A stretch of 64,000 nucleotides of DNA from NCBI RefSeq assembly GCF_050920415.1, contig NZ_CP169309.1; one strand, 5' to 3'. Within the stretch, counting starts at the first letter, position 1, and the number at the start of each line of letters is the position of its first letter. The translations under genes and the position numbers were made by a program. Under the pieces are notes generated by a model, which did no database searches, had not been told where the DNA came from, and saw nothing but the letters and a program-made list of their open reading frames with translations. This DNA comes from Escherichia coli. GTDB lineage: Bacteria; Pseudomonadota; Gammaproteobacteria; Enterobacterales; Enterobacteriaceae. This document shows positions 42,339 to 64,000 of this stretch, piece after piece.

Positions 42339-42363
42339 GCCCCCTTCTCAGGGGGCTTTTTTT
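42339..42363 (+). terminator. Rho-independent terminator of yjfY
   Basis: GCCCCC-TTCTCA-GGGGGC hairpin followed by TTTTTTT. Confidence 0.85.
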
Positions 42364-42426
42364 GAAAAACGGCTGCGGACTTAGACCAGTTATCTCCCGA
42401 AGAAGGAAATTTCCGCAGCGCGTGTT

Positions 42427-43113
42427 TTACTTCTGCCCGTAATAGGCGTTAGGACCGTGCTTACGCATGAAGTGTTTATTCATGAGATAGCTGTCGATGT
42501 GATTCAGTTGTGGGTTAATGCCGCGGGCAATCCACGCCATTTTCGCCACTTCTTCCATCACCACCGCGTTATGCACCGCATCGTGAGCATCTTTCCCCCA
42601 GGCGAACGGCCCGTGCTGATACACCACAATTCCCGGCGTATGCAGCGGCTCGGCGTCACCCAGCGTTTCGATAATCACTTTGCCTGTGTTTAGCTCGTAT
42701 TCCCCCTGCACTTCTTCTTCACTTAACCCACGCGTACACGGGATATCGCCAAAGAAGTAGTCAGCATGCGTGGTGCCTAATGCCGGGATCGCCAGCCCCG
42801 CTTGCGCCCATGCGGTGGCATGCGTGGAATGGGTATGGACAATGCCGCCAAGCGACGGATAACGACGGTAGAGTTCAAGATGCGTCGCAGTGTCGGAAGA
42901 CGGACGATACTCCCCTTCCACCACCTTGCCGCTAATATCAACCACCACCATATCGTCTGCTTTCATGGTTTCGTAGGCGACACCGCTGGGCTTGATCACC
43001 ACCAGCCCGCGTTCGCGGTCAATGGCGCTGACGTTACCCCAGGTAAAGGTCACCAGCCCGTAACGCGGCAGATCCATGTTGGCTTCAAATACCTGCTGTT
43101 TCAGCTTTTGCAT
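42427..43113 (-). CDS. ulaF: L-ribulose-5-phosphate 4-epimerase
   Basis: 228 aa class-II aldolase-fold [32 protein letters not shown]...; last gene of the ula operon. Confidence 0.95.
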
Positions 43114-43967
43114 TATGCCGCCTCCACCATGCCTGCTTTAGCCATGCGCGCTTTCACCCAATCACGCGCTTTCGCCACTTCTGCCGCCGGGTCTTCCGCC
43201 GTTTCGCTCCACATCTCAATCAGGTACGGCCCGCAATAGCCACTCTGTTTGAGCGTTTCAAAGCAACGTTCGAAATCCACCACACCCTCGCCAAACGGCA
43301 CGTTTTTGAAGACGCCTGGTTTAGTGTCTTTCACATGCACCGCGACGATATGCCCGATTCCGGCCTGCAATTCCATCTGCACGTCGTTGTCCCACGCCGA
43401 CAAGTTGCCGATATCCGGGTAGAGCTGGAACCACGGGTTGTTAAGATAGTGCGCGTAACCCAGCGCCTTGCTGATGGAGTTCATCAACGGGTAATCCATG
43501 ATCTCCATTGCCAGCGTCACCTGCGCGCGGCTCGCCATCTCAACGCTCTCTTTCAGGCCGTCACGGAAACGACGACGCGTTTCGTTATTGGCTTCCTGAT
43601 AGTAAACGTCGTAGCCCGCCAGTTGGATCACGCGAATACCGACATCCTGGGCGAACTGGATAGCTTTTCGCATAATCTCAAGCCCCTGCGCCCGCACTGC
43701 GTCATCTTCGCTGCCCAGCGGGAAACGACGATGAGCAGAAAGGCACATGGATGGTACGCGCACGCCGGTTTCAACAATCGCGTTCACCAGCGCCAGACGC
43801 TGCTCGCGGCTCCAGTCAAGGCGCGAGAGGCGATCGTCCGTTTCATCTACCGACATCTCGACAAAATCGAAGCCTAACGTTTTTGCCAGTTGCAGCCGTT
43901 CCAGCCAGCACTCCCCGGCGGGGAGCGCTTTTTCGTAGATGCCAAGCGGGATTTGTTTGGACAACAT
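43113..43967 (-). CDS. ulaE: L-ribulose-5-phosphate 3-epimerase
   Basis: 284 aa TIM-barrel [30 protein letters not shown]...; 1 nt overlap with ulaF. Confidence 0.95.
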
Positions 43968-43976
43968 ATCCGCTCC

Positions 43977-44627
43977 TTAGCCCCACAGTTCGGCGATGGA
44001 ACGTTTGAACTGACGCGCGGCTTCAACCGGAGAGGCGGCATCACGGATACTACGCCCAGCGATAAACACATGAATCGGAATGCCTTTGAACAGCGGCAGG
44101 TCTTCCAGCGCCAGGCCACCGGTGACGGTGACTTTGAAGCCCATATCGGAAAGACGTTTGATCGCGGTGATATCCGCTTCGCCCCACGCCACGCCTGCGG
44201 CCTGCGCGTCACGGCTGCGGTGATAAACCACCTGCTGGATACCTGCGTCGCGCCACTGCTGCGCCTGTTCCCAGGTCCAGTAACCGGTCAGTTCGATCTG
44301 CACGTCGCCATTAAACTCTTTTGCCACGTCCAGCGCGCCTTTGGCGGTGTTGATATCTGCACAGCAAATTACGGTCACCCAGTCAGCGTTGGCTTCAAAG
44401 CACATACGAGAAAGGATTTTTCCGGCATCGGCGATTTTGGCGTCTGCCAGCACGATTTTGTGCGGATAAAGCGCTTTCAGATCGCGAACCGCACGCACAC
44501 CTTCGCCCACGCACAGAATGGTGCCCACTTCGATAATGTCGACTTCTTCGGCAATCAGGCGAGTAGTTTCGTAGGCGCTAGCCATAGTCTGGTTGTCCAG
44601 CGCGACTTGCAACATCGGTAATGACAT
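43977..44627 (-). CDS. ulaD: 3-keto-L-gulonate-6-phosphate decarboxylase
   Basis: ORF track starts at 44780; ATG 44625-44627 gives [15 protein letters not shown]... (216 aa). Confidence 0.95.
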
Positions 44628-44640
44628 TTTCAATTCCTTC

Positions 44641-45105
44641 TTAAGCAGCCGCGTTGGTGCGGTCAATGAGATCCAGGATTTCCTGCTCGGTACGGCAGGC
44701 GCGTAAACGGTCGAAATTCTCTTCATCTTCAAACAGGTTGACGATCTGCATGATGCCCACTTCCTGATGCGTGTTGGCATCGACCGCCGCCATCGTGATG
44801 AGGATATCCACCGGGTCGTTATCTTCGTGGTTGAACTCCAGCGGCTTTTTCAGCGTCACCAGCGCAAAACCGGTTTTCTTAACGCCCTCTTCCGGGCGAC
44901 CATGCGGCATTGCCAGGCCCGGTGCGAGCACAAAGTACGGACCGTGCTGTTCAACCGCATCCAGAATCGCCTGGTAGTAACGCGGCTCTACCACATCTGC
45001 CGCCACCAGCAGGTCAACGCCGATTTTCACTGCGTCCTGCCATGTCTCAGCTTCAGCCTGCAGACGGATAGATTTATTCTCCGCCAGCGAATCACGTAAT
45101 TTCAT
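44641..45105 (-). CDS. ulaC: Ascorbate-specific PTS enzyme IIA
   Basis: 154 aa [32 protein letters not shown]... Confidence 0.95.
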
Positions 45106-45114
45106 AGGGCGCCC

Positions 45115-45420
45115 TTACTTCACGTCCTGCGGGAAATGTTCTTTGATCACTTCCAGCAGTTTCGGGCCAAAGTCAGCAGGAGAGAGCATGTTGCGCACGC
45201 CAACGACATATTTGTTGCCGGTCACGGTGATCTCGCCCGCGATGTGCGTAGAAGCGATGATGATATCCGCGCCGCTCAACTCGCTTTTGTATTCACCAAC
45301 CGCGCAGCTGTTTACCGTATGGTCGATGTTCGACTGGGTTAAAAACTGGTCCACTTTCATTTTCATGATCATGGAACTGCCTTGTCCGTTACCACACACA
45401 GCCAGAATACGTACGGTCAT
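45115..45420 (-). CDS. ulaB: Ascorbate-specific PTS enzyme IIB
   Basis: ATG 45418-45420 gives [19 protein letters not shown]... (101 aa) with the CGNG phosphocysteine motif. Confidence 0.95.
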
Positions 45421-45435
45421 AATCAAAACTCCTTA

Positions 45436-47187
<1,752 letters not shown>

Positions 47188-48252
47188 ATGAGTAAAGTGA
47201 AAAGTATCACCCGTGAATCCTGGATCCTGAGCACTTTCCCGGAGTGGGGTAGCTGGCTGAATGAAGAAATTGAACAAGAACAGGTAGCTCCTGGCACATT
47301 CGCGATGTGGTGGCTAGGCTGTACCGGGATCTGGCTGAAATCTGAAGGTGGCACCAACGTTTGCGTCGATTTCTGGTGTGGTACTGGCAAACAAAGTCAC
47401 GGTAACCCACTAATGAAACAGGGTCACCAGATGCAGCGCATGGCTGGCGTGAAAAAACTGCAACCGAACCTGCGTACCACCCCATTTGTTCTTGATCCGT
47501 TTGCGATTCGCCAGATCGACGCGGTACTGGCAACTCACGATCACAACGATCATATCGACGTCAACGTCGCTGCTGCCGTGATGCAGAACTGCGCTGATGA
47601 CGTGCCATTTATCGGGCCGAAAACCTGCGTGGATTTGTGGATTGGCTGGGGTGTGCCGAAAGAACGTTGCATCGTGGTCAAACCGGGCGATGTCGTTAAA
47701 GTGAAAGACATTGAAATTCATGCCCTTGACGCGTTTGACCGTACTGCACTGATCACTTTGCCTGCCGATCAAAAAGCGGCTGGCGTACTGCCAGACGGCA
47801 TGGACGATCGCGCGGTAAACTACCTGTTCAAAACGCCGGGCGGTACCCTGTATCACAGTGGCGATTCCCACTACTCTAACTACTATGCGAAGCACGGTAA
47901 CGAGCATCAGATCGACGTGGCATTAGGTTCATACGGTGAAAACCCACGTGGTATCACCGACAAAATGACCAGTGCTGATATCCTGCGTATGGCAGAAGCG
48001 CTGAATACAAAAGTGGTTATCCCGTTCCACCATGATATCTGGTCAAACTTCCAGGCCGATCCGCAAGAGATCCGCGTACTGTGGGAGATGAAAAAAGATC
48101 GCCTGAAGTATGGCTTCAAGCCGTTTATCTGGCAGGTCGGTGGCAAATTTACCTGGCCGCTGGATAAAGACAACTTCGAGTACCACTATCCACGCGGTTT
48201 TGACGATTGCTTCACCATTGAACCGGATCTGCCGTTCAAGTCGTTCCTGTAA
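47188..48252 (+). CDS. ulaG: L-ascorbate-6-phosphate lactonase (metallo-beta-lactamase fold)
   Basis: ATG 47188 gives [21 protein letters not shown]... (354 aa) with HDHNDH metal-binding motif. Confidence 0.95.
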
Positions 48253-48359
48253 TCTGTCGTTTATACCGGATGGCGTGGAGAAGTTCGCGCTATCCGGCGT
48301 AGTATTTCCTGGCTATTTCAAATATCATCTAAAAAAATCAAATTTTATCGGAATAGCTC

Positions 48360-49115
48360 ATGACTGAAGCACAAAGACATCAAATTCTCCTGGAAATGCT
48401 CGCACAATTGGGCTTTGTGACCGTTGAGAAAGTCGTTGAGCGTCTGGGAATTTCGCCTGCTACCGCTCGACGCGATATCAATAAACTTGACGAAAGCGGC
48501 AAACTGAAAAAAGTGCGCAATGGCGCAGAAGCCATTACCCAGCAGCGCCCACGCTGGACGCCGATGAATCTGCATCAGGCGCAGAACCATGATGAAAAAG
48601 TACGTATCGCTAAAGCAGCCTCGCAGCTGGTTAATCCGGGCGAAAGCGTCGTCATCAACTGCGGTTCCACCGCGTTTCTGCTTGGGCGGGAAATGTGTGG
48701 CAAGCCAGTGCAAATCATTACTAATTATCTACCGCTGGCGAATTACCTGATCGATCAGGAGCATGACAGCGTGATTATCATGGGCGGCCAATACAACAAA
48801 AGCCAGTCCATCACCTTAAGTCCACAGGGCAGCGAAAACAGTCTCTATGCCGGGCACTGGATGTTTACCAGCGGCAAAGGACTGACCGCAGAAGGGTTGT
48901 ATAAAACCGATATGCTGACGGCAATGGCAGAGCAGAAGATGTTGAGCGTGGTAGGGAAACTGGTGGTACTGGTTGATAGCAGTAAGATCGGCGAACGTGC
49001 GGGGATGCTCTTTAGTCGTTCAGATCAAATCGATATGCTGATCACCGGCAAAAATGCTAACCCGGAAATCCTGCAACAACTGGAAGCGCAAGGGGTCAGC
49101 ATTCTGCGTGTTTAA
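48360..49115 (+). CDS. ulaR: DeoR-family repressor of the ula regulon
   Basis: 251 aa [46 protein letters not shown] (HTH) with a DeoR C-terminal sugar-phosphate-binding domain. Confidence 0.95.
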
Positions 49116-49861
49116 AGATGCTGGCGGAAAAATGTCACGGCGGTCTCTAACGCCTCGGGCGTAATGCGGTGACGCACGCCTGGCTGCCATGAACAGGTTA
49201 GCTGTTTATCCCGTCCCACCTCGCTTAAGGCCTGCTGCAAACGTAGTGATTCGTCGGCGGGGACGACATCATCGTCAAGGCCATGCCATAAGAGCAGAGG
49301 TCTGTTTCCCAACTCTTCCAGGTGGTTTGTCGCTTCCCACTCTGCCAGTGGCGCGATAATGTTATTAAATTCGTTCTGCTGTCCTGTCGTTTCAGATATC
49401 AGCGGTGGAAACAGTGAACGGGCGAGTGATGTAAAATAGCCCGATCCCATCATGCTGGCGGTACATTTCACCGTGGGGTAGCGAGCGGTAATTCCCAGAG
49501 CCGTCATCGCGCCCATCGATGCACCACCGATTGCCAGACGGTCATCAAGCAGCCAGTTTTCTTCAGCTACTGCCGCACGTAAAGTAATGAATTCCTGCAT
49601 ACTTTGTAGCAAGATTTGCCAAAATTGATTTAACCGCCGCGCTGCGTCGCCCCTAAAACGGCTACCGTGATCGGGCGCATCCGGCATGATCACCCGCAAA
49701 CCAGCCTGCGCCAGCGCAACGGCAAAATAGCTATACACCAGACTGGACGAAGTAAAGCCGTGATAAAAAATCACGCACGGTAACGGGGTATCTTTTTGCC
49801 CGACAGGATAAGCATGAAGAACGGGAATATCTGCCAGCACGCGCGAGTCTATTTCAATCAT
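49112..49861 (-). CDS. yjfP: Alpha/beta-hydrolase esterase YjfP
   Basis: 249 aa ORF with nucleophile-elbow GASMG; convergent 4 nt overlap with ulaR. Confidence 0.93.
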
Positions 49862-50042
49862 CTGTCTCTCCTTTTTGTCTGGTATGACATGAAGAAATCC
49901 TTAGCACAAGTTTCTGCTGGCGGTATTAGTTCATAATGTTGAGATGTGGGTTACGCTTTCATCACGTTTTCATTCGAAAATCGCGTACCAGGTAACAATT
50001 CGGGAACATTCCCCCAAAGTTAAATTAATAAGGCACTACACT

Positions 50043-50372
50043 ATGGTTAGCAGGAAACGTAATAGCGTTATTTACCGGTTTGCCAGTTTATTATTGGTGT
50101 TGATGTTAAGTGCCTGTAGCGCACTGCAAGGTACGCCACAGCCAGCACCGCCAGTAACGGACCATCCGCAAGAGATTCGCCGCGACCAGACGCAAGGGTT
50201 ACAGCGAATAGGTAGCGTAAGCACGATGGTTCGGGGTTCTCCGGATGACGCATTAGCAGAAATCAGAGCGAAAGCTGTCGCTGCAAAAGCTGATTATTAC
50301 GTTGTCGTCATGGTGGACGAAACCATCGTGACAGGACAGTGGTATTCACAAGCCATTTTGTACCGTAAATAA
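50043..50372 (+). CDS. bsmA: Biofilm stress and motility protein A (DUF1471 lipoprotein)
   Basis: ORF track starts at 49944; ATG 50043 gives MVSRKRNSVIYRFASLLLVLMLSACSA... (109 aa) with a lipobox LSAC. Confidence 0.9.
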   Translation: MVSRKRNSVIYRFASLLLVLMLSACSALQGTPQPAPPVTDHPQEIRRDQTQGLQRIGSVSTMVRGSPDDALAEIRAKAVAAKADYYVVVMVDETIVTGQWYSQAILYRK

Positions 50373-50520
50373 ATCAGACAACTTACATAGTCAGCTTTAC
50401 ATTGCTTTGCGTCCCTATGCGTTTACCTGTGCACAATAAATTACCAGCTGGAAGCTCGGGCGTTTATTACCGCGATGGAATGCCCTGCAACATGTGGGGA
50501 AACGAAAAATGGAGCTGACG

Positions 50521-50796
50521 ATGAAACAATTACTTGCCTCACCCTCGCTGCAATTAGTGACTTATCCTGCGAGCACCACGGCACAGTCTGCAGAATTCGC
50601 CAGTGCTGACTGCGTAACGGGCCTGAATGAAATAGGTCAGATCTCGGTTAGCAATATTTCAGGGGATCCGCAGGACGTGGAACGTATCGTGGCGTTAAAG
50701 GCCGATGAACAAGGTGCATCATGGTACCGCATTATTACCATGTACGAAGACCAGCAGCCTGATAACTGGCGCGTACAGGCGATCCTGTATGCGTGA
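50521..50796 (+). CDS. yjfN: DUF1471 small periplasmic protein YjfN
   Basis: GGAG Shine-Dalgarno then ATG 50521 gives MKQLLASPSLQLVTYPASTTAQSA... (91 aa); C-terminus resembles yjfY and bsmA. Confidence 0.88.
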   Translation: MKQLLASPSLQLVTYPASTTAQSAEFASADCVTGLNEIGQISVSNISGDPQDVERIVALKADEQGASWYRIITMYEDQQPDNWRVQAILYA

Positions 50797-50820
50797 GTGT
50801 CATCTACAGCAAATGAACAA

Positions 50821-50856
50821 TGCCGGATGCGGCACCTGTGCCTTATCCGGCCAACA
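50821..50856. repeat. REP element
   Basis: TGCCGGATGCGGCACCTGTGCCTTATCCGGCCAAC palindromic unit after yjfN. Confidence 0.8.
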
Positions 50857-50945
50857 GTTCCTGAAATTTCATTGTGTTAGTTGATAACACGTAATGCTGC
50901 TGTTGCCATTATAAGACGCGCTAGCATCACATCTGGCTGACTCGT

Positions 50946-52571
50946 TTATAAACATACTCCCCCCGTCGCCCGCAGCAATAAATCATTCTGGATCTGCTCT
51001 GACAACCGCACGCCGCCGCGCGTATCAAACATCATCTGACACCACGCCTGCGCCATTGGCGGAGAGGCATATTTCAACATTTGCGCGCCGCAACCCAGCA
51101 GGAATAGCTGACGAGTAATCTCTCGCCCCATTTCTTCAGCTGGCTTACGCAGTTGCTGCTGCAAACGACGAACCGCGCGATCAAAATAGCGATCCTGTCC
51201 TTTCACTTCCACAAATGCTTCTGTCAGCAAATCGTATACCCCAGCCTGCTTATTGAGAACGCGCAGCACATCGAGGCACATAATATTGCCAGAACCTTCC
51301 CAGATGCTGTTCACTGGCATTTCCCGATAAAGTCGCGGTAGTTCGCTCTCTTCGCAATAGCCAATACCGCCCAGCACCTCCATCGCTTCAGCCACAAACG
51401 GAATGCCACGTTTGCAGATAACAAATTTCGCCGCAGGCGTAAATAAGCGCGCCCACAGGGCTTCTTTGGCATCGGCACGCCGATCCCACGCTCGCGCAAG
51501 ACGAAACAGCAACGCTGTTTGCCCTTCAAGTTGGAGCGCCATGCGGCTTAAGACATGACGCATCAAAGGCTGTTGGATCAATGGATTACCAAAAACATGG
51601 CGTTGATGGGCATGATAAATCGCCAGCGAAAATGCACGGCGCATCATGGCATGGCTACCCAGGGCGCAATCAAAACGCGTCATCCCACCCATTTTCAGGA
51701 TCAGACGAACTCCTTCCCCTTCCTGCCCCAACAACCAGCCAATGGCATCCTGAAACTCCACTTCGCAGCTGGCGTTAGAGCGATTACCCAGCTTATCTTT
51801 CAGCCGCTCGAGGCGAATCGCGTTGCGTTGCCCGTCAGGCAAAAAGCGCGGCACAAAAAAGCAGGACAAACCGCCCGTAGTCTGCGCCAGCACCAGATGC
51901 GCATCGCTTTGCGGCACCGAGAAAAACCATTTATGCCCCACCAGCCGATAAGAGCCATCGTCCAGACGCTCTGCGCGGGTAGTGTTGCTCATCACATCGG
52001 AACCGCCCTGCTTTTCCGTCATGCCCATGCCAATCAACAAACCGCGTTTTTGCCCACCTGGCAATAAGTGGGAATCGTAGCGATCGCTCAACAGCGGCGT
52101 GGTCCAGTCCTGAAACGGCGCGGGTAACATCTGTAACAGCAATGGCGTGGCGGCAAAGGTCATGGTTATCGGACATAACGACCCTGCCTCAACCTGTGCG
52201 TGCAACATAAAACGCGCCGCGCGCGCCACAAATGCGCCGGAGCGAGCGTCTTCTTCCCAGGCAAGATTGTGCACCCGATTGGTACATAGCGCCTGCATCA
52301 GCAAGTGCCAGGCGGGGTGAAAACGCACATCGTCCAGACGGCGTCCTTGCGCATCGTAGCGCAATAATTCAGGCGGATTCACATTCGCCAGCCGCCCCAG
52401 TTCAAGAGATTCAGCCGTTCCTAACTGCTGACCAATACTGGCGAGAAAATCGCTATCCCAGCCAGCACCTTCACGCGTTACCGCTTCGCAGAGCGCGCCA
52501 TCAGACAGGTATAAGTTGCTGTTATTTAATGGTATAGGTTGATTAAAAACGGTGTGAGTTTGCCAGTGCAC
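50946..52571 (-). CDS. aidB: Acyl-CoA-dehydrogenase-like adaptive-response protein AidB
   Basis: ACAD-fold ORF; start taken at GTG 52569-52571 (..HWQTHTVFNQPIPLNN.., 541 aa) to match the length I remember; an in-frame ATG at 52584-52586 would add 5 residues. Confidence 0.9.
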   Translation of the reverse strand: MHWQTHTVFNQPIPLNNSNLYLSDGALCEAVTREGAGWDSDFLASIGQQLGTAESLELGRLANVNPPELLRYDAQGRRLDDVRFHPAWHLLMQALCTNRVHNLAWEEDARSGAFVARAARFMLHAQVEAGSLCPITMTFAATPLLLQMLPAPFQDWTTPLLSDRYDSHLLPGGQKRGLLIGMGMTEKQGGSDVMSNTTRAERLDDGSYRLVGHKWFFSVPQSDAHLVLAQTTGGLSCFFVPRFLPDGQRNAIRLERLKDKLGNRSNASCEVEFQDAIGWLLGQEGEGVRLILKMGGMTRFDCALGSHAMMRRAFSLAIYHAHQRHVFGNPLIQQPLMRHVLSRMALQLEGQTALLFRLARAWDRRADAKEALWARLFTPAAKFVICKRGIPFVAEAMEVLGGIGYCEESELPRLYREMPVNSIWEGSGNIMCLDVLRVLNKQAGVYDLLTEAFVEVKGQDRYFDRAVRRLQQQLRKPAEEMGREITRQLFLLGCGAQMLKYASPPMAQAWCQMMFDTRGGVRLSEQIQNDLLLRATGGVCL

Positions 52572-52654
52572 TGTGTCTCCCTCCATCAATGGCAGTCACC
52601 CTTAGTATGGTCACTGCCATGGATTCCTGACAGAAAGAGATTGCTAAAACATTC

Positions 52655-53818
52655 TTACCCAGCAATGTAATGCGGAACGAAACGTGAGGTGTCTTTGGTG
52701 ATCAGCGTGTTATCTTCACGGATTCCCATTCCGCACGCTTCATCATCGACAATCCAGCTACCGATGAGTGTGTAGCTATCGCCAAATCGCGGCAGAGGTT
52801 GAAACGCCTGATAGATCATCGGTTCATCGGCGTAATCACCCTCAGCGTGGTCAACGACGTTATTCTGACCGTCGAAAATGGTGACGTTTCCGCCTTCGCG
52901 TGAGTAGATCGGTTTACGCACATAGCTTTCGCCAGCGGCAATCTGCGGTTTTTCGCCATCAAACCAGGATGCAAGTAGGTTAGGATGACCAGGAAAGAAG
53001 CGCCAAAGCAGCGGCATTAACCCTTTGTTGCTCAAGATACTTTTCCATAACGGCTCCACCCATTGCTCGCGGCGCTTGCGCAGCAGAGGACCGTTATCGT
53101 CACGCATCATCCATTCCAGCGGATACAGCTTAAATGCACGCTGGATGACATTATCATCAAGATCGGTCAGTACACCGCCGACGCCCAAACCGAGATCTTC
53201 AATGTAGATAAACCGTGACTCCTGCCCAGCCTGCTGAGCGCAGTCCTGCAAGTACAGCACAGTACTCCTGTCTTCGTCGGTATCCTGACAACAGCAGAAA
53301 TAAAACGGTTCCCGACTGTAAAGCTCGCTAAAACGCGAAATCAGGCGTTCCTGAATGGCATTGTACTGATCGGCATCACGCGGAATAATGCCGCTACGCC
53401 GCGCATCTTCCAGCCACAGCCACTGGAAATAAGCCGATTCATACAACGAGGTTGGCGTATCGGCGTTGTACTCCAGCAGCTTCACCGGCGCATTGCCACA
53501 CCAGGCAAAATCCATCCGACCATACAGCGAAGGATCGCGTGCGCGCCAGCTTTCAGCGATCACATCCCAGTACAGCGGGGGGATCGCCAGTTGCGTCAGG
53601 ATTTCTTCGTCTTGAACCGCACGATCCACCACCTCAAGGCACATCTGATGCAGTTCCGCAGTTGGTTTTTCGATCTGCTCTTCTATCTGACGCAGAGTAA
53701 AGCGGTAAGCCCGACTCTCATCCCAATAGATTTCATTGTCGATGATATGAAAGTCGAAACCGTTGTCGGCGGCGATCTGGTCCAGATCCCGTCGTACAGG
53801 AACGTTGTGTCTCAGCAT
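52655..53818 (-). CDS. yjfC: Glutathionylspermidine-synthase-like ATP-grasp protein YjfC
   Basis: 387 aa ORF MLRHNVPVRRDLDQIAADNGFDFHIIDNEIYWDES...; last gene of the yjfI-yjfC cluster. Confidence 0.92.
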   Translation of the reverse strand: MLRHNVPVRRDLDQIAADNGFDFHIIDNEIYWDESRAYRFTLRQIEEQIEKPTAELHQMCLEVVDRAVQDEEILTQLAIPPLYWDVIAESWRARDPSLYGRMDFAWCGNAPVKLLEYNADTPTSLYESAYFQWLWLEDARRSGIIPRDADQYNAIQERLISRFSELYSREPFYFCCCQDTDEDRSTVLYLQDCAQQAGQESRFIYIEDLGLGVGGVLTDLDDNVIQRAFKLYPLEWMMRDDNGPLLRKRREQWVEPLWKSILSNKGLMPLLWRFFPGHPNLLASWFDGEKPQIAAGESYVRKPIYSREGGNVTIFDGQNNVVDHAEGDYADEPMIYQAFQPLPRFGDSYTLIGSWIVDDEACGMGIREDNTLITKDTSRFVPHYIAG

Positions 53819-53820
53819 GA

Positions 53821-54459
53821 TTAGCCTCCCCAGTGCCCACGGGCGCTGGAAGAACGACCATAGCCGCCGCGAGAAACAGTTGACGCTTTTCTGGTGGTAA
53901 AGCCGCCCGAGGAGTAAGACTCTTTTTTGCCAGAACCGGAGCGCCAGGAGTAATCACCGGAAGTATTGCGCCAGACGGGGCGGGAAGCAAATGAGGATCC
54001 ACCGCTGTTATAAACGAACGGCTCATCGCGATCTTTACGAATAACCCGGCTTAATAAAAATCCAGAAATGACCGGGATCCAACTCTGTTCAACATTGTCG
54101 TAGTAGCAATTTTCGTACTTAGACTGACAATTCTGCTGAGTCATATTCTTCGGAACATCGGCATAAAATGCCGCTTTGGCATTGTTCCAGCCATGAGCAC
54201 AGATATCTGAATTATTACCGTCATCAATACAATCCTGCACTGTCGAGTAAAACGTTCCGTCACCGTCGTTATCGACATCACCACTATCGCCACAACCTTT
54301 CAATACAAAAAAAGCTGCACCGCCCATTAGCGCCAACGTTAAGTATTTTTGTGCGTAGCGATTGCGTCGCGGCTCAAAAGGATTATTAGGTCTTCCAATG
54401 CGACTGATCGCTCCGTGACCAATTTTACTGTTATTTCTTGATTTGCGTTTTCTGGCCAT
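53821..54459 (-). CDS. yjfM: DUF1190 protein YjfM
   Basis: 212 aa ORF with basic N-terminus MARKRKSRNNSK..., one TM segment and a Gly/Ser/Tyr-rich tail. Confidence 0.9.
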   Translation of the reverse strand: MARKRKSRNNSKIGHGAISRIGRPNNPFEPRRNRYAQKYLTLALMGGAAFFVLKGCGDSGDVDNDGDGTFYSTVQDCIDDGNNSDICAHGWNNAKAAFYADVPKNMTQQNCQSKYENCYYDNVEQSWIPVISGFLLSRVIRKDRDEPFVYNSGGSSFASRPVWRNTSGDYSWRSGSGKKESYSSGGFTTRKASTVSRGGYGRSSSARGHWGG

Positions 54460-54468
54460 GATCGTCCA

Positions 54469-54867
54469 TTACCATGTCATACAAGCTGCGTTAAAAATAC
54501 CGCCAGCCAGCGCGGCGGTTCCCATAAACATTCCTGCTGCGGTATTGTGATTAATAATTTTTTCGCTTAATGCTGGCATATAAAGTCTGACGCCAGCAAA
54601 AACGAGTAACTGAATCACCAGTGCGATCCCGCCCCAGGCAAAATAATCCGGAATACTCACCGCATTGATTGCCGCACTAGATAATGGGATCACGTAACCC
54701 AACAATGTACCACTGAACGCCAGTGCCGCCGCGGTATTATTGTTTTTAATTAACTGCCATTCGTTGTGCGGTGTAATTTTGGAGTAGATAAACAGAAAAA
54801 TAATCACCATAGCCACGCCAATAAAAAAATAGGCGCTAAAGGCAAGAAGTGAATCCAGTATATGCAT
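54469..54867 (-). CDS. yjfL: DUF350 inner-membrane protein YjfL
   Basis: 132 aa hydrophobic ORF with about four TM helices. Confidence 0.9.
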   Translation of the reverse strand: MHILDSLLAFSAYFFIGVAMVIIFLFIYSKITPHNEWQLIKNNNTAAALAFSGTLLGYVIPLSSAAINAVSIPDYFAWGGIALVIQLLVFAGVRLYMPALSEKIINHNTAAGMFMGTAALAGGIFNAACMTW

Positions 54868-54884
54868 CGTAAACGTCCTTGTAA

Positions 54885-55544
54885 TTAACCAATAATATGA
54901 AGTGATGTCAGTGGGATATCAACACCCAGTGCGCGCGAAAATAACCACTCCGGCTCGCCGAGATCGTTAAAAGATTCCTCACCATTTAACAGCAAATATT
55001 CACAGGTATCTTCGGTCACCTGCCGTTCATAGCCCATGGTAAAATTATGCACTTCCCATTTGGCGTGGTTTTGATTTTCAACTTTTTCCAGCATATAGAC
55101 GGGTTCGATATTCCCCGGTTCTTCGCTGTTAAAAAATCGCTGCCAGCGTTTTTCCTGCCAGTTTAATGTCATTGCCCCCATCGCTTTGGCGTTGATCGCT
55201 TCGCGCCAGTGGCTCTCTTTGCTGATACCGTAGCTCTCTTCATAGACAAAGAGCTTTATATCATCAATGTCATCAATATCTTCGCCGCCGGTGGTATTGA
55301 TTTGCAGAAATTCATCGCCCGAAGTGTAGTAGCGGAAAATCTGACTACCGCCGCCCAGATCGATGTGGCTGACAGCGGCTACCGTAAATTCTTCACCCGG
55401 CAGCGCAATCAGCAATTCATCTTCCAGCAAACGAAACGCTAACGTGTCGAGCGTAAAGCCGCTATTGAGATGAAGTCCCAGCGGGCCACGTGCGGTTACA
55501 GGTTTATCATCCTTACCAAACAGACGCTTGAAAAAACTTGTCAT
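54885..55544 (-). CDS. yjfK: DUF2491 protein YjfK
   Basis: 219 aa ORF MTSFFKRLFGKDDKPVTARGPLGLHLNSG...; start overlaps the stop of the upstream channel-like gene (ATGA). Confidence 0.9.
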   Translation of the reverse strand: MTSFFKRLFGKDDKPVTARGPLGLHLNSGFTLDTLAFRLLEDELLIALPGEEFTVAAVSHIDLGGGSQIFRYYTSGDEFLQINTTGGEDIDDIDDIKLFVYEESYGISKESHWREAINAKAMGAMTLNWQEKRWQRFFNSEEPGNIEPVYMLEKVENQNHAKWEVHNFTMGYERQVTEDTCEYLLLNGEESFNDLGEPEWLFSRALGVDIPLTSLHIIG

Positions 55545-56611
55545 ATGCTTCCCTCAATGTCCTGCCATACCACTTCTTCAGCCAAAATACGGTTATTGCC
55601 AATAAGATGCAGCCACATACCGCCTTTAACTTCCGTTGCAATGACTGGATTCAGTTCCATTCCCCTACCATTTTTACAACTGCTTATTCCCAGGACGGTG
55701 GCATCATGATGAAGTTTCATATAATGCATCAATGCGCCATAACGCATCGAGGTAACCCGTTCAGGAATCGGTAAAACAAACCCCGTATCCCCCAGCATTG
55801 GATTCATAATCGATGCCACTGATTGAGATGAACCGGGATCTTGTATTGAACGGGAAAGTTGTTCTGCTGAAATATTTCGCACTATTTCAATACGTTGACA
55901 ATGAACCTCTAATAAACGAGCGTAGCGTTCATCTTCCAGATAAGCGACGATATGGCATCTTTCAGGAATAAAATCCGCCAGGGATAGTGCGGTCGTGAAC
56001 GTCTGCTCATCTGTTTGCGAAAAGATGATGACACTTTGGCAATTTGCCAGTCCCATGCGGGTATGTTCATGCGGATCATTAAAATTACTAATACGAATGA
56101 AATCGACCCAATTATTTCCAGGCATCGGATGTTGAATATCATCCCGCTCACACAAAAGTACCCGGCCAAATGCTCTTCGGGAATCAAACAACAATAATGA
56201 AATCATCTTTTCAGTCTGATGCCCGCGCCATCCAATGACCAGCATATGGTTGCGCAAATTGCTGTAGTCGCCCATTCCCGTCATTCCTTTCGCCAATATG
56301 TCTTGCACTAATGCAATGACTTTTCCCATTAAAGCGCCAAATAAACCAACACTCACAGGAATCTGCCAGAGCGCTGTGAACAGACGTCCCCCAACCGTTT
56401 GGGGTGTGATATCACCAAACCCCAGCGTTGATCCCACAACCGAGCAGTAATAAATAAAATTACTCAGTTGACCTACCAACGCCTCTTCATGCAACGCAGT
56501 TAACACCAGATAACAAAACAGATACTGTCCTGTAAATAATCCAGTCAATGCCGGCCAGGTAAGCCTGGAAAGGTGACGTCGGCAGGTTTTAATGATCCAG
56601 GAGAAGAACAT
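55541..56611 (-). CDS. Two-TM potassium-channel-like protein with C-terminal RCK/TrkA-N-like domain
   Basis: 356 aa ORF: TM1 (LTGLFTGQYLFCYLVLTAL), pore helix with selectivity-filter-like TLGFGD, TM2 (LFTALWQIPVSVGLFGALMG), then an RCK-type segment starting HMLVIGWRGHQTEK. Start ATG shares its A with the yjfJ TAA stop; stop overlaps the yjfK ATG. Confidence 0.8.
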   Translation of the reverse strand: MFFSWIIKTCRRHLSRLTWPALTGLFTGQYLFCYLVLTALHEEALVGQLSNFIYYCSVVGSTLGFGDITPQTVGGRLFTALWQIPVSVGLFGALMGKVIALVQDILAKGMTGMGDYSNLRNHMLVIGWRGHQTEKMISLLLFDSRRAFGRVLLCERDDIQHPMPGNNWVDFIRISNFNDPHEHTRMGLANCQSVIIFSQTDEQTFTTALSLADFIPERCHIVAYLEDERYARLLEVHCQRIEIVRNISAEQLSRSIQDPGSSQSVASIMNPMLGDTGFVLPIPERVTSMRYGALMHYMKLHHDATVLGISSCKNGRGMELNPVIATEVKGGMWLHLIGNNRILAEEVVWQDIEGSI

Positions 56612-57309
56612 TACTCGCCCTGTTGGCGTTGCAGTCTTGCTAATACATCCTGGGCGCTACTTTTGTTGCTACCGCCAATTCCGGCTTCCGCCAGTTTTTC
56701 ATCAAGATCGCGACCATCTGCCACTTTTTCCAGCTGTGCGGCAGCATCCAGGCGAGCTTGACGTTCGGCCTGACGCGTTTGCAGACGCTTTAAGGATTCT
56801 GCCGCTGTCGAAACGCTGGAAGATGCGCCAACAGTAGAGGTCGTTACGGCCTGTTGTGCACGCTGCATGGCTTCAGTAGCTTTAACGACTTCCATTTGTT
56901 GCTCAAATTGAGCGATACGCTGTGCTGTCGCTGTAACCGCTTTTTCCACACCATCGCGAGAGACCTCCAGATTCGACAACACTTGCTCTTCAGCGGTAAT
57001 GAGATTCTCAAGACGGGCGATTTCTTCAGCAACTTCGTTAATCAACGACGGATTAACATTCTTGCTTAACGCTTCCAGCGCGCGAGCTTCCAGACTGGCT
57101 TTACGCTCACGTAAATCTTTCAGTTTATCGTTGCTCAATTTCACTCTTGCCAGTAGATCGACACGTGATTTACCGGCCTTATCCAGTTCTGCTTTGGCAT
57201 CGCGTATATGCTGTTCAAGCATTCTAACGCCCTGTGCTTCTTCAATGGATTCTTCCGCTTGCGAGATCACCGATTTACCCAGCGTAAATAAAGTTTTTAA
57301 AATTCCCAT
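56611..57309 (-). CDS. yjfJ: PspA/IM30 (ESCRT-III-like) family protein YjfJ
   Basis: 232 aa predicted coiled-coil ORF MGILKTLFTLGKSVISQAEESIEEAQGVRMLEQHIRDAKAELDKA... Confidence 0.92.
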   Translation of the reverse strand: MGILKTLFTLGKSVISQAEESIEEAQGVRMLEQHIRDAKAELDKAGKSRVDLLARVKLSNDKLKDLRERKASLEARALEALSKNVNPSLINEVAEEIARLENLITAEEQVLSNLEVSRDGVEKAVTATAQRIAQFEQQMEVVKATEAMQRAQQAVTTSTVGASSSVSTAAESLKRLQTRQAERQARLDAAAQLEKVADGRDLDEKLAEAGIGGSNKSSAQDVLARLQRQQGE

Positions 57310-57327
57310 AAATACCTGTCCTTGTAA

Positions 57328-57729
57328 TTAGTGTGAATATTCTTCTGTAATTTCAGCAAGATCCAAAGCGTTATCTACCAGCGTGGTTATTTCCAGCAGG
57401 ATATCTTCAAGAGAAGATTTAAGCGATAACGCCCCGAAAACAATGTAATACTCTTCCTCTTGCACGCTGGAGATCCCTACCGATGACAACGGCATCATCT
57501 TCTGATTTCTTAATAAGAAGGTATTAAATTCATCTGGATTGCTGATACTACTTACCGGACAAATAAAGGTTTCGATAATCATTTGGCGGGAAGTAAAAAG
57601 AATATTGATTTGCAAATCGCCATAATCATTCATTTTAATAATTAATGCGTTTTCATTATTTGTTATATCAATATTTTGTTCAGGTACAGTTTGCAGCGCC
57701 GTCGCCAGCGCCAACGGATTCCATGTCAT
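57328..57729 (-). CDS. yjfI: DUF2170 protein YjfI
   Basis: 133 aa ORF MTWNPLALATALQTVPEQNIDITNNENALIIKMNDYG...; first gene of the cluster. Confidence 0.9.
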   Translation of the reverse strand: MTWNPLALATALQTVPEQNIDITNNENALIIKMNDYGDLQINILFTSRQMIIETFICPVSSISNPDEFNTFLLRNQKMMPLSSVGISSVQEEEYYIVFGALSLKSSLEDILLEITTLVDNALDLAEITEEYSH

Positions 57730-57807
57730 ATATTATTCCATATAAATTAAGTTTAAATATTAATAAAATGAATATTTGTAGTACGTAATTATCTTACCAG
57801 CTATAGA

Positions 57808-57840
57808 CAAAAAAAAACCATCCAAATATGGATGGTTTTT
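57808..57840. terminator. Bidirectional hairpin terminator after rlmB
   Basis: AACCATCCA-AATA-TGGATGGTT perfect stem flanked by A9 upstream and T5 downstream; a T-run follows on the minus strand after the rlmB stop. Confidence 0.85.
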
Positions 57841-57855
57841 CATAATTCAGAGAAA

Positions 57856-58587
57856 TTAGCTACGCTGGCGTACCGCTTCAAATAAGCAAATGCCTGTCGC
57901 CACAGAAACGTTCAGCGAAGAAACACTTCCTGCCATTGGGATGCTGATCAACTCATCGCAATGTTCACGGGTCAGGCGACGCATGCCTTCACCTTCTGCG
58001 CCCATCACCAGTGCCAGCCGTCCGGTCATTTTGCTCTGATAGAGCGTATGATCCGCCTCTCCTGCCGTACCGACGATCCAAATATTCTCTTCCTGCAACA
58101 TACGCATGGTGCGCGCCAGGTTAGTCACCCGAATCAGCGGAACGCTTTCTGCCGCGCCGCAGGCCACTTTTTTCGCCGTGGCGTTGAGCTGTGCGGAGCG
58201 ATCTTTCGGCACAATCACCGCATGAACGCCAGCGGCGTCCGCGCTGCGCAGGCACGCGCCGAGGTTGTGCGGATCGGTCACACCGTCGAGGATCAGCAGG
58301 AACGGTTGATCGAGCGAAGCGATCAGATCCGGCAGATCGTTTTCCTGATACTGACGTCCTGGCTTCACACGGGCGATAATGCCCTGATGCACGGCACCGT
58401 CGCTTTTCTCGTCGAGATATTGGCGGTTTGCCAGCTGGATAACCACGCCCTGGGACTCAAGGGCGTGAATCAGCGGCAACAGACGTTTATCTTCACGGCC
58501 TTTTAAAATAAAGACTTCCTGAAAACGTTCAGGGGCGCGCTCCAGCAGGGCCTGCACTGCGTGGATGCCGTAAATCATTTCACTCAT
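57856..58587 (-). CDS. rlmB: 23S rRNA (guanosine-2'-O)-methyltransferase (SpoU/TrmH family)
   Basis: 243 aa [36 protein letters not shown]...; downstream of rnr. Confidence 0.95.
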
Positions 58588-58609
58588 TAATGTACTCGTT
58601 GTTTACGTT

Positions 58610-58712
58610 TTGCCTGATGCGCTACGCTTATCAGGCCTACATGATCCCTGCAATGTATTGAATTTGCGTGATTATGTAGGCCGGATAAGGCGTTCACGCC
58701 GCATCCGGCATG
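58610..58712. repeat. REP/BIME cluster
   Basis: GCCTGATGCGCTACGCTTATCAGGCCTAC ... GTAGGCCGGATAAGGCGTTCACGCCGCATCCGGCA units between rnr and rlmB. Confidence 0.85.
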
Positions 58713-58767
58713 AACAAAGCGCATTTTGTCAGCAATCTGACCCTCTTCTGTTTGAAGGGGGTAATGA

Positions 58768-61209
58768 TCACTCTGCCACTTTTTTCTTCGCCGCACGCTT
58801 CGCTTTAGTTGCAGCGGCTATTTTCTGCGTTTTCGCCGATGGCTTTTTCGCTTTTCTCGCGTCTTTCTTCGCCGCTTTCGGCTTCGGTTTTTTCTCGCCA
58901 CGGAAGGCGCTGTCTGGCTCAAAGTTTACCTTTTTACCGACCTGGCGACGCTTGCCACCTTTTTTACCTGCATCGCCTTTTTTCGCTTTCTCGCGCGCGG
59001 TTTTACCGACGTTGCGCGGTGCGCGTTCGCTGGAGATCAGGCTAAAGTCGATTTTGCGCTCGTCCATATTAACCGCTTCGACGCGCACTTCCACGCGATC
59101 GCCCAGGCGATAAGTCTGGCCGCTGGATTCACCCATCAGGCGTTGTCCTACCTGGTCAAAGCGATAGTAGTCATTGTCCAGAGAAGAGACATGGACCAGA
59201 CCATCGATGAACAAGTCATCCAGGCGAACAAAGAAGCCAAAACCAGTGACGCTGGAAATCACGCCTTTAAAGACGTTACCTACCTGGTCGAGCATGAAGT
59301 CACACTTCAGCCAGTCAGCCACATCGCGCGTTGCTTCGTCGGCACGACGTTCCGCCATCGAACAGTGCTGACCCAGTTGCAGCATTTCTTCCATCGAATA
59401 ATGGTAGCCGCCGGTTTCAGTGGTGTTGCCCTGATGCCCCTGCTCTTTCGCCAGCAGATACTTAATGGCGCGGTGTAGCGTCAGATCAGGATAACGACGA
59501 ATCGGCGAAGTAAAGTGCGCATAGGACTGCAATGCCAGACCGAAGTGACCGCGGTTTTCCGGATCGTAAATCGCTTGTTTCATCGAGCGCAACAGCATGG
59601 TTTGCAGCATTTCTGCGTCAGGACGGTCAGCAACCGATTCCAGCAGTTCCGCGTAGTCACGCGGTTCCGGCTTGTTACCGCCAGGCAATTCCAGCCCCAG
59701 TTCCGCCAGCACTGAACGGAAAGAGGTTATCGCTTCAGTGCTCGGCTTGTCGTGAATACGGAACAGTGCCGGTTCTTTGGCCTTCTCAACGAAACGCGCC
59801 GCCGAGATATTCGCCAGAATCATGCACTCTTCAATTAACTTGTGTGCGTCGTTACGCTGGGTCTGTTCGATACGCTCAATACGGCGTTCAGCGTTGAAAA
59901 TGAACTTCGCTTCTTCGCTCTCAAACGAGATCCCGCCGCGTTCTTCACGGGCTTTATCCAGCACTTTATAGAGGTTATGCAGCTCTTCGAGGTGCTTAAC
60001 CAGCGGGGAGTACTGCTCGCGCAGATCCTGATCGCCCTGCAGAATATGCCAGACTTTGGTGTAGGTCAGACGCGCGTGAGAGCTCATCACCGCTTCATAG
60101 AATTTGTAGCCCGTCAGGCGACCTTTCGACGAAATGGTCATCTCACACACCATACACAGGCGGTCTACCTGCGGGTTGAGCGAGCACAGGCCGTTAGAGA
60201 GCACTTCCGGCAGCATCGGGATAACCTGCGAAGGGAAGTACACCGACGTGCCACGGTTACGCGCTTCCCTGTCCAGCGGCGTTGGCGGACGCACATAGTA
60301 GCTGACGTCGGCAATCGCGACCCATAAACGCCAGCCGCCGCCGCGTTTTTTCTCGCAGTAAACTGCATCGTCAAAGTCACGGGCGTCTTCGCCATCAATG
60401 GTGACCAGCGGTAAATCGCGCAGATCGACACGGCCAGCTTTCGCCTCTTCCGGCACTTCTTCTTTCAGCCCGGCAACCTGTTGCTCAACAGCCTGCGGCC
60501 AGATGTACGGAATTTCATGGGTACGCAGGGCGATATCAACCGCCATGCCGGTGCCCATATTATCGCCCAGCACTTCGACGATTTTACCCACTGCTTTGGT
60601 ACGGCGAGTCGGGCGTTGGGTCAGTTCAACCACCACCACAAAGCCCATCCGCGCGCCCATGATCTGATCGGGCGGGATTAAGATATCGAAGCTCAAACGA
60701 CTGTCGTCAGGAACCACAAAGCCGACACCCGCTTCGGTAAAGTAGCGACCAACAATCTGGCTGGTTTTTGGCACCAGTACGCGGACAATACGCGCTTCAC
60801 GGCGGCCTTTACGGTCAGCGCCCAGCGGCTGCGCCAGCACCTGATCGCCATGAATGCATGTTTTCATCTGCTCGCTGGAGAGATACAAATCATCTTTACG
60901 TCCTTCAACCCGCAGAAAGCCGTAGCCATCACGGTGGCCAATAACGGTACCTTTCACCAGGTCGAGGCGTTCCGGCAGCGCATAGCACTGACGGCGAGTA
61001 AAGACCAGTTGACCATCGCGCTCCATCGCGCGCAGGCGGCGACGCAGGCCTTCAAGCTGCTCTTCGCCTTCAATGTGCAGTTCTACCGCCAGCTCATCAC
61101 GGCTGGCCGGTTTTTCACGTTTGGTTAAATGTTCGAGGATAAATTCCCGACTAGGGATGGGATTCGCGTATTTTTCAGCTTCGCGTTCCTGGAAAGGATC
61201 TTGTGACAT
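58768..61209 (-). CDS. rnr: Ribonuclease R
   Basis: ORF track starts at 61251; ATG 61207-61209 gives [20 protein letters not shown]... (813 aa) with RNB and S1 domains and a Lys-rich C-terminal tail. Confidence 0.95.
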
Positions 61210-61247
61210 CTCGGTTCCTCCGTTGTCATCTCTGATGAAGATTTTCG

Positions 61248-61673
61248 TCACTCCACCAGCAATAATTTATAAAGCGGTTGATTCTCTTCAACCAAATCGG
61301 CAAGCGTGTAGTTATCCAGTTCCGTAAGAAAACTTTGCACGGCCTTAGAAAGTGCCTGTTTCAACCGACAGGCAGGTGTAATGTGGCAAAACTCACTGCT
61401 GCAATTCACCAGCGATAAGGGCTCCAGCTCGCGCACCACATCACCAATACGTATCGCACTCGCCGGTTTACCCAGACGAATGCCGCCATTTTTTCCACGA
61501 ACAGCAGTCACGTAGCCGGCACGACTAAGTTGATTGATTATTTTGACCATATGATTACGGGAGACGCCGTAGACGTCAGTCACTTCAGAAATACTGGTCA
61601 TCCGCCCTTCTGGCAATGACGCCATGTAGATCAGCGCACGTAATCCGTAATCAGTGAAACTCGTTAACTGCAC
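61248..61673 (-). CDS. nsrR: Nitric-oxide-sensing Rrf2-family repressor NsrR
   Basis: 141 aa ORF (GTG start) [31 protein letters not shown]... with a C-x6-C-x5-C cluster ligand motif. Confidence 0.93.
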
Positions 61674-61877
61674 ATCAACCTCAAAAGGGAAAGCGGGAAA
61701 AAATACATTTATATTGATGATAAACCAGCCACAAGCTGTGTCGCTAATTTATTTCAGTTCGGGGAAGGAAAAAAGCGAGGATTTAACACTGTGTCGGATA
61801 GCATAATGGCTAACCCGACACAGCAATGTATCACACTGTTAGCCCGGCAGGCAAAATATCTGCCAGGCGTACCAGAA

Positions 61878-63179
<1,302 letters not shown>

Positions 63180-63279
63180 TCAAAATCACCGTTTGCTTAA
63201 AAATGGATTCTACCATCGCTTTTTCAGAGTTACAGCACTTTTTGCACTCAAAAATGACCTCGATCAGTCTGTTTTTTGT

Positions 63280-63477
63280 TCAGCCAATCGTTTTCCTCAA
63301 CATGTAGTAGACCACAACGCCCGCAACCACAAGTCCACCGCCAAAACGACGTAAAATATTATCGGGCAAATTGGTCATCGCAGCGATCATCTTCTTCCAT
63401 GCCTTCGGGTAAAGCATCGGCCCTAAACCTTCCAGCACCAAAACCAGGGCAAGCGCCAGCCAGATTGTCGAATTCAT
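63280..63477 (-). CDS. yjeT: DUF2065 small membrane protein YjeT
   Basis: 65 aa ORF MNSTIWLALALVLVLEGLGPMLYPKAWKKMIAAM...; between hflC and purA. Confidence 0.88.
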   Translation of the reverse strand: MNSTIWLALALVLVLEGLGPMLYPKAWKKMIAAMTNLPDNILRRFGGGLVVAGVVVYYMLRKTIG

Positions 63478-63558
63478 TCATTATCCTTATAGAAAAAGAA
63501 AACCACCGACATCCCTGAGGATGCGGTGGCTTTATTGACCTGTACCGCAGTCGTTATA

Positions 63559-64000
63559 TTAACGCGTTGCGGAAGTCGGCGTCTTCATGTAGCGGAAGAA
63601 ATCGCTGTCCGGGCTCATGACCATCACGTCCTGATTGCCGGAGAAGCTGTTCTCATAAGCACGCAGGCTACGGATGAATGCGTAGAAGTCCGGATCTTTA
63701 CTGAATGCATCAGCAAACAGTTTAGCTGCTTCTGCATCGCCTTCACCACGCATGATGCGGCCCTGACGCTCAGCTTCTGCCAACGTTCTGGTCACTTCAT
63801 AGTCGGCAGTCGCGCGCAGTTTTTCCGCTTCTTCCTGACCTTGTGAACGGTGACGACGTGCTACCGCTTCACGCTCGGCGCGCATACGGTTGTAGATCGC
63901 TTCAGACACCTCGGTCGGCAGGTTGATCTGCTTGATACGCACATCGACAACTTCAATACCCAGCGCCGCCATACTGTTCGGGTTGATGACCGGTACTTTA
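63559..64000 (-). CDS. hflC: Modulator of FtsH protease HflC, 3' portion; 5' end lies beyond the right edge
   Basis: Reverse-strand frame ending ...FFRYMKTPTSATR at 63559 with no in-window start; band-7/SPFH sequence upstream of yjeT-purA. Confidence 0.88.
   Translation of the reverse strand, partial: KVPVINPNSMAALGIEVVDVRIKQINLPTEVSEAIYNRMRAEREAVARRHRSQGQEEAEKLRATADYEVTRTLAEAERQGRIMRGEGDAEAAKLFADAFSKDPDFYAFIRSLRAYENSFSGNQDVMVMSPDSDFFRYMKTPTSATR

Follow-up and report, generated by a model that had tools for sequence, protein, structure and literature searches.

A putative MthK-type potassium channel gene within the yjfI-yjfC operon of an Escherichia cryptic clade I genome

The 64,000-nucleotide stretch of Escherichia coli DNA that we analysed (RefSeq assembly GCF_050920415.1, contig NZ_CP169309.1), hereafter the window, carries between yjfJ and yjfK a gene that K-12 lacks and whose product is probably a potassium channel of the MthK type. 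The initial annotation of the window, made from the letters of the DNA, had proposed such an architecture, a pore module with two transmembrane (TM) helices followed by an RCK/TrkA-N-like cytoplasmic domain, and this was borne out by both the sequence comparisons and the predicted fold described below. The gene is an intact frame of 356 aa with an ATG start, and in a genome identical to the window (NZ_CP169399.1, 100%) RefSeq names its product potassium channel family protein (WP_000466339.1). Its features are as follows.

55541..56611, minus strand: potassium channel family protein, 356 aa (open reading frame list, RefSeq, Pfam, sequence and fold match to MthK)
56613..56609, minus strand: TAATG, the yjfJ stop codon (TAA) and the channel ATG with one A in common (raw sequence)
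55544..55541, minus strand: ATGA, the yjfK ATG overlapping the channel TGA by 4 nt (raw sequence)
56303..56488, minus strand: pore module, residues 42-103, comprising the end of the outer helix, pore helix, filter and inner helix (Ion_trans_2 and AlphaFold2)
56411..56428, minus strand: putative filter T62-L-G-F-G-D67, codons ACG CTG GGG TTT GGT GAT (sequence)
55562..56254, minus strand: predicted RCK cytoplasmic domain (TrkA_N and C-lobe-like), residues about 120-350 (model, Foldseek, weak TrkA_N, conservation)

The gene and its predicted product

Both junctions that the initial annotation had described, the start codon sharing a base with the yjfJ stop and the stop codon overlapping the yjfK ATG, could be read in the sequence, and a Shine-Dalgarno-like run, GAGGGAAG, lies just upstream of the yjfK start at the channel stop. 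The open reading frame list and the annotation contain no mobile-element genes or repeats beside the channel gene.

The pore module is recognised by the Pfam model Ion_trans_2 over residues 42-103 (E 1.7e-10), and in an AlphaFold2 model built on a 69-sequence alignment of the family the helices at residues 19-39, 49-61 and 73-111 make up two TM helices and a pore helix. The predicted protein so has the layout of a P-loop K+ channel, in which two TM helices flank a pore helix and a re-entrant loop. Several nr/NCBI records of orthologs (P0001, P0003 and P0004) carry the name "two pore domain potassium channel family protein", a label that is a misnomer because the protein has a single pore domain.

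Would such a channel be selective for K+? The initial annotation held that the F of GFGD, in place of the Y of GYGD, left ion selectivity open, and the TLGFGD motif does differ from the canonical TVGYGD at two positions, L and F replacing V and Y, as might be expected if the protein had a channel fold but let cations through without selection, or acted as a sensor that does not conduct. We consider this quite improbable. Across the family alignment G64, G66 and D67 are present in all 69 sequences and T62 in 65, and position 65 is Y in 51 sequences and F in 18, so that F at this position is a common variant within the channel family; position 63 is most often V (45 sequences), followed by I (15) and by L, as here (7). 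When PDB sequences were searched, TLGFGD lined up with the TVGYGD of MthK and the TIGYGD/TVGLGD of TOK1, and the pore region alone also matched TOK1, K2P, NaK and BK channels. The alignment of the pore motif with channel filters, which the initial annotation had put forward as a check, consequently held across the 69 sequences, and the motif fits a T-[VIL]-G-[YF]-G-D filter signature. In addition, K+ is coordinated in the filter by carbonyls rather than by side chains, and there are K2P and EAG/hERG channels that select for K+ with a GFG filter. Given the frequency of F among the relatives and the GFG filters of K2P and EAG channels, the reservation about selectivity was judged overcautious, and the strong purifying selection on the gene, to which we return below, also speaks against a non-selective channel or non-conducting sensor.

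The AlphaFold2 model (mean predicted local distance difference test score 94.4, predicted template modelling score 0.85) places an N-terminal helix, the outer helix, the pore helix and a long inner helix ahead of a Rossmann-like strand/helix domain and a C-terminal lobe. A Foldseek comparison of this model with the PDB returned MthK chains as all of its top seven matches (E about 1e-16), followed by Slo1/BK, and the best match by template modelling (TM) score was 6u68_A (E 2.8e-16, TM-score 0.68/0.74, 353 aligned columns). Sequence comparison with phmmer gave a congruent result, aligning channel residues 6-300 with MthK residues 4-285, the N-terminal peptide included (E 1.4e-7). Within the putative RCK domain the motif QDPGSS (residues 257-262) is conserved in the family alignment. 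The GxGxxG dinucleotide loop expected after beta1 is absent, its place being taken by V-I-G127-W-R-G130-H-Q (family consensus VIxGWxxxxT), and the domain would thus not belong with the NAD/ATP-binding KTN domains of the TrkA/KtrA type. Taken together, these features are those predicted for an MthK-type channel, in which two TM helices are followed by one RCK domain that is C-terminal and continuous with the inner helix.

Two further details touch on the likeness to MthK. The N-terminal peptide MFFSWIIKTCRRHLSRL (residues 1-17, 56560..56611) aligns with the N-terminal segment of MthK, VIEIIRKHLPRV, the segment that serves as the inactivation ball of that channel, and 6u68, the best match by TM-score, is the "open-inactivated" structure of MthK. 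Secondly, an internal methionine, Met113 (56273..56289, minus strand), is a candidate start: AAGGA occurs 9 nt upstream of it, and it belongs to the linker that joins the inner helix to the RCK domain; it is kept in most of the enteric orthologs inspected (as GMG) and not in the wider family. As to naming, NCBIfam does not assign the channel to a named family, apart from a partial, sub-threshold match of residues 45-256 to PRK10537 (Kch) (E 1.2e-8), and at 34.4 bits against a cut-off of 425, with two TM helices, an ortholog of Kch was ruled out.

The operon and its relatives in other genera

The channel gene is the third of seven genes, all on the minus strand and tightly spaced, in the order yjfI-yjfJ-channel-yjfK-yjfL-yjfM-yjfC. 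The following neighbours were identified from the open reading frame list and annotation.

57328..57729, minus strand: yjfI (DUF2170; classed as CesT/Tir-like by Ravi et al., 2024)
56611..57309, minus strand: yjfJ, 232 aa (PspA/IM30 family)
54885..55544, minus strand: yjfK, 219 aa (DUF2491)
54469..54867, minus strand: yjfL (DUF350 membrane protein)
53821..54459, minus strand: yjfM (DUF1190 lipoprotein-like)
52655..53818, minus strand: yjfC (glutathionylspermidine-synthetase-like ATP-grasp ligase)

An operon of this kind has been described. Ravi et al. (2024; mSystems, PMC11237479) defined a "third group" of CesT/Tir(YjfI)-PspA(YjfJ) operons with a potassium channel, and their supplementary table lists an Alteromonas addita locus (AMJ95269.1) with exactly the gene order of the window, alongside a channel-less gammaproteobacterial row. 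The Pfam content of the orthologous loci we examined agrees with their seven-gene row in both order and domains. As a side observation, YjfI (57328..57729) also matches the NCBIfam model of the Pseudomonas biofilm regulator BacA (NF050185, E 3e-27, below cut-off), a match that connects the pair yjfI-yjfJ with the bac cluster of P. aeruginosa treated in PMC10948618.

Orthologs of 56-87% identity were found in Citrobacter, Salmonella, Enterobacter, Atlantibacter, Buttiauxella, Scandinavium and Dryocola, as well as in a strain that bears the name Serratia microhaemolytica. On Salmonella and Atlantibacter contigs the channel gene lies between the PspA_IM30 and DUF2491 genes with the identical 1-nt and 4-nt overlaps, and this slot, together with these overlaps, recurs in Citrobacter, Buttiauxella and others. 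A genome scan with one genome per species, for which a 15-sequence alignment served as query (the 69-sequence one being too diverse), yielded 12 enterobacterial loci, among them that of a second cryptic Escherichia with 97% protein identity, and all 12 have the order yjfI-yjfJ-channel-yjfK-yjfL-yjfM-yjfC where the contig lets it be seen. Of 11 enterobacterial loci inspected at the junctions, 10 keep the 5' TAATG, and at the 3' junction most have ATGA, a TAATG/TGATG-type arrangement or abutting genes. Furthermore, the identity of the channel falls across genera in parallel with that of its flanking genes: to YjfJ, the channel and YjfK it is 88, 82 and 79% in Salmonella and 69, 63 and 54% in Atlantibacter.

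When 1.84 billion representative proteins were searched exhaustively, a coherent family of full-length relatives of about 350 aa emerged, with 108 clusters below E 1e-30; the 69 aligned sequences are drawn from it. Even at 30-32% identity, metagenome members (loci L088, L091 and L092) are linked to yjf-type genes: in L088 the channel relative adjoins a YjfJ homolog and a YjfK-like N-terminus, and in L091 and L092 it heads a DUF2491-DUF350-DUF1190(-GSP_synth) operon divergent from DUF2170, with a PspA_IM30 gene also on the divergent side in L091.

Distribution in Escherichia and the origin of the gene

Of 5426 complete E. coli genomes, 18 carry the gene, always on the chromosome and always between yjfJ and yjfK, and the 18 copies are 99.3-100% identical; at the loci compared, the window is 100% identical to strain MFDS1022581. 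The initial annotation had taken yjfJ and yjfK to be adjacent in K-12 with no gene between them, and this is correct: K-12-type genomes have a 50-bp spacer there and no gene.

A question that arises from so narrow a distribution is "What are the genomes that carry the gene?" Over about 36 kb (about 28500..64000 of the window) five carriers and the window diverge from K-12 by 3-7% throughout and from one another by mostly 0.2-2%, and at cpdB-cysQ, 35 kb away, the same approximately 20 of the 5426 genomes match at 97.9% identity or above, all others being at or below 92.6%. Two of the carriers, EC42405 and 2013C-4282, are listed under Escherichia cryptic clade I by Okuno et al. (2023; PMC10100065). 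Because of the divergence over 36 kb, the recurrence of the same set of genomes at cpdB-cysQ and the two published clade I carriers, we take the window to come from a clade I strain, and on these comparisons the channel gene appears to distinguish the clade I genomes examined from sensu stricto E. coli. The 7-8% divergence of yjfJ and yjfK from typical E. coli had at first been read as a local import of about 10 kb, a reading ruled out by the 3-7% divergence over 36 kb; likewise, the separation of this small group of genomes at a locus 35 kb distant indicates a lineage and not a local patch of recombination.

Several individual strains are of note. STN0717-20 (positions 1-5500 of locus L099) falls in the clade I cluster at cpdB-cysQ, its yjfI is annotated as a pseudogene and megablast found no match to the channel; between rlmB and yjfI it has four genes, for a UxaA-family hydrolase, a major facilitator superfamily transporter, a dihydrodipicolinate synthase-family protein and an IclR regulator. 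E04 (positions 9800-11300 of locus L100) likewise belongs to the clade I cluster at cpdB-cysQ but has a K-12-type yjfJ (identical protein) and a junction without the channel, a pattern that suggests that alleles of clade I and of sensu stricto have recombined in the yjf region. In the carrier WL297 (positions 20001-21071 of locus L096) the channel is annotated as a pseudogene with an internal stop, from which gene loss may be ongoing within clade I.

Is the channel then a decaying relic in clade I, without a current function and on its way to the loss already seen in sensu stricto? The WL297 copy, one of 18, would be consistent with this, as would the repeated loss of the gene in Enterobacteriaceae and the fact that the operon works without it in K-12. 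Nevertheless, we give the idea hardly any credence. The other carriers inspected are undisrupted, all 18 copies are nearly identical, the junction overlaps are intact, and relative to the cryptic-Escherichia ortholog the ratio of nonsynonymous to synonymous substitution rates (dN/dS) is 0.083 at a dS of 0.146, which shows purifying selection on the gene. In comparisons with other genera dS has either reached saturation or is very high (2.85 for one Citrobacter), with dN of 0.11-0.32.

Was the gene gained by these strains or lost by the others? The initial annotation regarded it as an accessory gene, an opinion to be given up should the gene occupy the same position in K-12 and essentially all relatives. 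The outcome falls between the two: the gene is absent from K-12 and rare among E. coli genomes, so that this part of the claim stands, but many relatives have it, and its presence in the same slot in other genera speaks against its having been added. A recent horizontal insertion at the yjfJ-yjfK junction of a few E. coli strains would account for its absence from K-12 and about 99.7% of complete E. coli genomes, for a K-12 spacer in which no deletion scar is recognisable and for a distribution within Salmonella and Enterobacter that looks patchy. We find such an insertion very improbable, however, because at least five other genera have the gene in the identical slot with identical 1-nt and 4-nt overlaps, the divergence of the channel tracks that of its flanking genes, homologs of only about 30% identity are tied to the same partner genes, the carriers form one divergent lineage rather than scattered strains, and the flanks are free of mobile elements and repeats. 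The slot, the overlaps, the parallel divergence, the 30-32% relatives with operon genes and the single carrier lineage lead us instead to ancestral retention and loss: most likely, the channel is an old component of the operon whose repeated losses include one in the ancestor of E. coli sensu stricto. Overall, we think it probable, with some confidence, that the protein is a tetrameric K+ channel of the MthK type encoded by an ancestral third gene of the operon, which clade I has kept and sensu stricto has lost.

A number of observations weigh against this conclusion. First, of the two domain models to which the initial annotation pointed, Ion_trans_2 was found as predicted but TrkA_N gave a weak match (residues 180-235, E 0.039) that alone is not significant; an RCK domain is supported nevertheless, by the full-length phmmer match to MthK and the Foldseek result for the AlphaFold2 model. 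Second, the Ca2+ ligands of MthK, D184, E210 and E212, align with F197, E226 and E228 in positions that vary across the family, and the ligand may differ from that of MthK because F197 replaces D184 and only two of the three acidic ligands align. Third, alignments of the 50-bp K-12 spacer in search of channel remnants scored no better than shuffles (1518 of 5000 at the 5' end and 2983 of 5000 at the 3' end); a deletion scar, for which shuffles reach the observed score in 30% (5') and 60% (3') of cases, was dropped as a candidate, and since the spacer has no detectable remnant it is the phylogenetic distribution by itself that speaks for loss over gain. Fourth, 71 marine gammaproteobacterial relatives of 34-42% identity (Pseudoalteromonas, Psychromonas, Shewanella and allied genera) stand alone, and tblastn of the six Yjf proteins against these 71 loci gave no match, so the link to the operon evidently does not hold for the channel family as a whole. 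Lastly, the one-per-species scan returned no Salmonella representative although Salmonella proteins fit the search patterns, from which we conclude that presence is patchy within genera.

The spacer and the marine loci each offered observations of their own. In the K-12-type genomes the 50-bp spacer (positions 6700-6749 of locus L002) forms a predicted stable hairpin with a 10-bp stem and core arms GCCAGCCT/AGGCTGGC (folding of a 65-nt stretch gave a minimum free energy of -18.6 kcal/mol, z -2.6). After the hairpin come a T-rich run and the yjfK Shine-Dalgarno sequence, and within the operon the hairpin may serve as an attenuator or to stabilise the RNA. Among the marine relatives, conserved partners were sought and dropped, the neighbour clusters consisting of genus-specific housekeeping genes. 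Three stand-alone members in unrelated contexts (L087 9162-10949, L089 4835-6397 and L090 5769-7281; Catenovulum and two metagenome contigs, on one of which the gene is fragmented) lie near gamma-glutamyltranspeptidase genes, two of them also with aminotransferase genes nearby. The association with gamma-glutamyltranspeptidase is absent from the other 68 marine loci, and a glutathione link drawn from neighbouring genes was for that reason set aside as only a hint.

Possible role and comparison with known systems

The gene is annotated in RefSeq and its association with the operon was published by Ravi et al. (2024), and both are thus already known; our literature search turned up no experimental work on the channel itself. 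In K-12, yjfIJKL is a single co-regulated operon that is up-regulated in heat-adapted lines and has been flagged as a possible heat-tolerance operon (PMC12492005).

How might the channel work within this operon? The protein would assemble as a tetramer with an RCK gating ring and a K+-selective pore, and the overlaps imply that its translation would be coupled to that of YjfJ upstream and YjfK downstream. Upon expression of the operon, a cytoplasmic ligand may bind the RCK ring and open the pore. This ligand is predicted not to be a dinucleotide, and it could be a divalent cation or a polyamine- or glutathione-related product of the operon's ATP-grasp ligase. Alongside polyamine modification and the stabilisation of the membrane by YjfJ, the resulting K+ flux could tune turgor, cation balance and membrane potential. 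The main exchangeable cations of the cell are K+ and polyamines, and a pairing of a channel with polyamine chemistry is therefore plausible. A more specific proposal is that the RCK domain is gated by the operon's own chemistry, that is, by a polyamine or a glutathione-derived conjugate made by YjfC, or directly by YjfJ. We hold this to be rather unlikely, and the gamma-glutamyltranspeptidase and aminotransferase neighbours of the non-operon relatives, in three contexts, are but a weak hint of a glutathione or gamma-glutamyl link. If it were true, the operon would couple the sensing of membrane damage and polyamine modification to K+ flux. In either case, that the channel has been lost repeatedly suggests that it is a dispensable modulator of the yjf system.

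What is gained from recognising the channel in clade I? The yjfIJKLMC genes form a widespread, uncharacterised envelope-stress/polyamine module of the PspA family, of which E. coli sensu stricto is in effect a natural channel deletion mutant, and clade I (with the channel) and sensu stricto (without it) offer a natural genetic contrast for finding the function of the yjf system. The gene is also a simple presence/absence marker for the clade I genomes seen here relative to sensu stricto. Neither the contrast nor the marker changes current understanding, the gene being annotated and its operon association published.

Of the known systems, the closest in architecture is MthK, the Ca2+-gated K+ channel of Methanothermobacter (PDB 1LNQ, 6U68), with which the alignment extends over the full length, from the N-terminal helix through the single RCK domain. 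In both proteins a GW-type beta1-alphaA turn replaces GxGxxG, the MthK peptide IRKHLPR resembles CRRHLSR in the channel of the window, and the position of the candidate start Met113 resembles that of the internal start from which MthK yields soluble RCK. The two differ in that their identity is only about 17-18%, that the filter is TVGYGD in MthK and TLGFGD here, and that the gene of the window, unlike that of MthK, is embedded in a PspA/polyamine operon. The Kch protein of E. coli, a voltage-gated-like channel with six TM helices, has a pore and an RCK domain in common with the two-TM channel of the window but is encoded at a different locus. TrkA, KtrA and KefC, the KTN/RCK regulators that bind nucleotides or glutathione, share the Rossmann-like RCK fold, whereas the channel of the window lacks GxGxxG and its RCK domain is predicted to be fused to a P-loop channel rather than to serve a Trk, Ktr or Kef transporter. 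Finally, the operon of Ravi et al. (2024) was recognised by comparative genomics in other taxa, and their E. coli-type row has no channel, whereas the full channel-bearing form is seen here in a member of the E. coli species complex, namely cryptic clade I.

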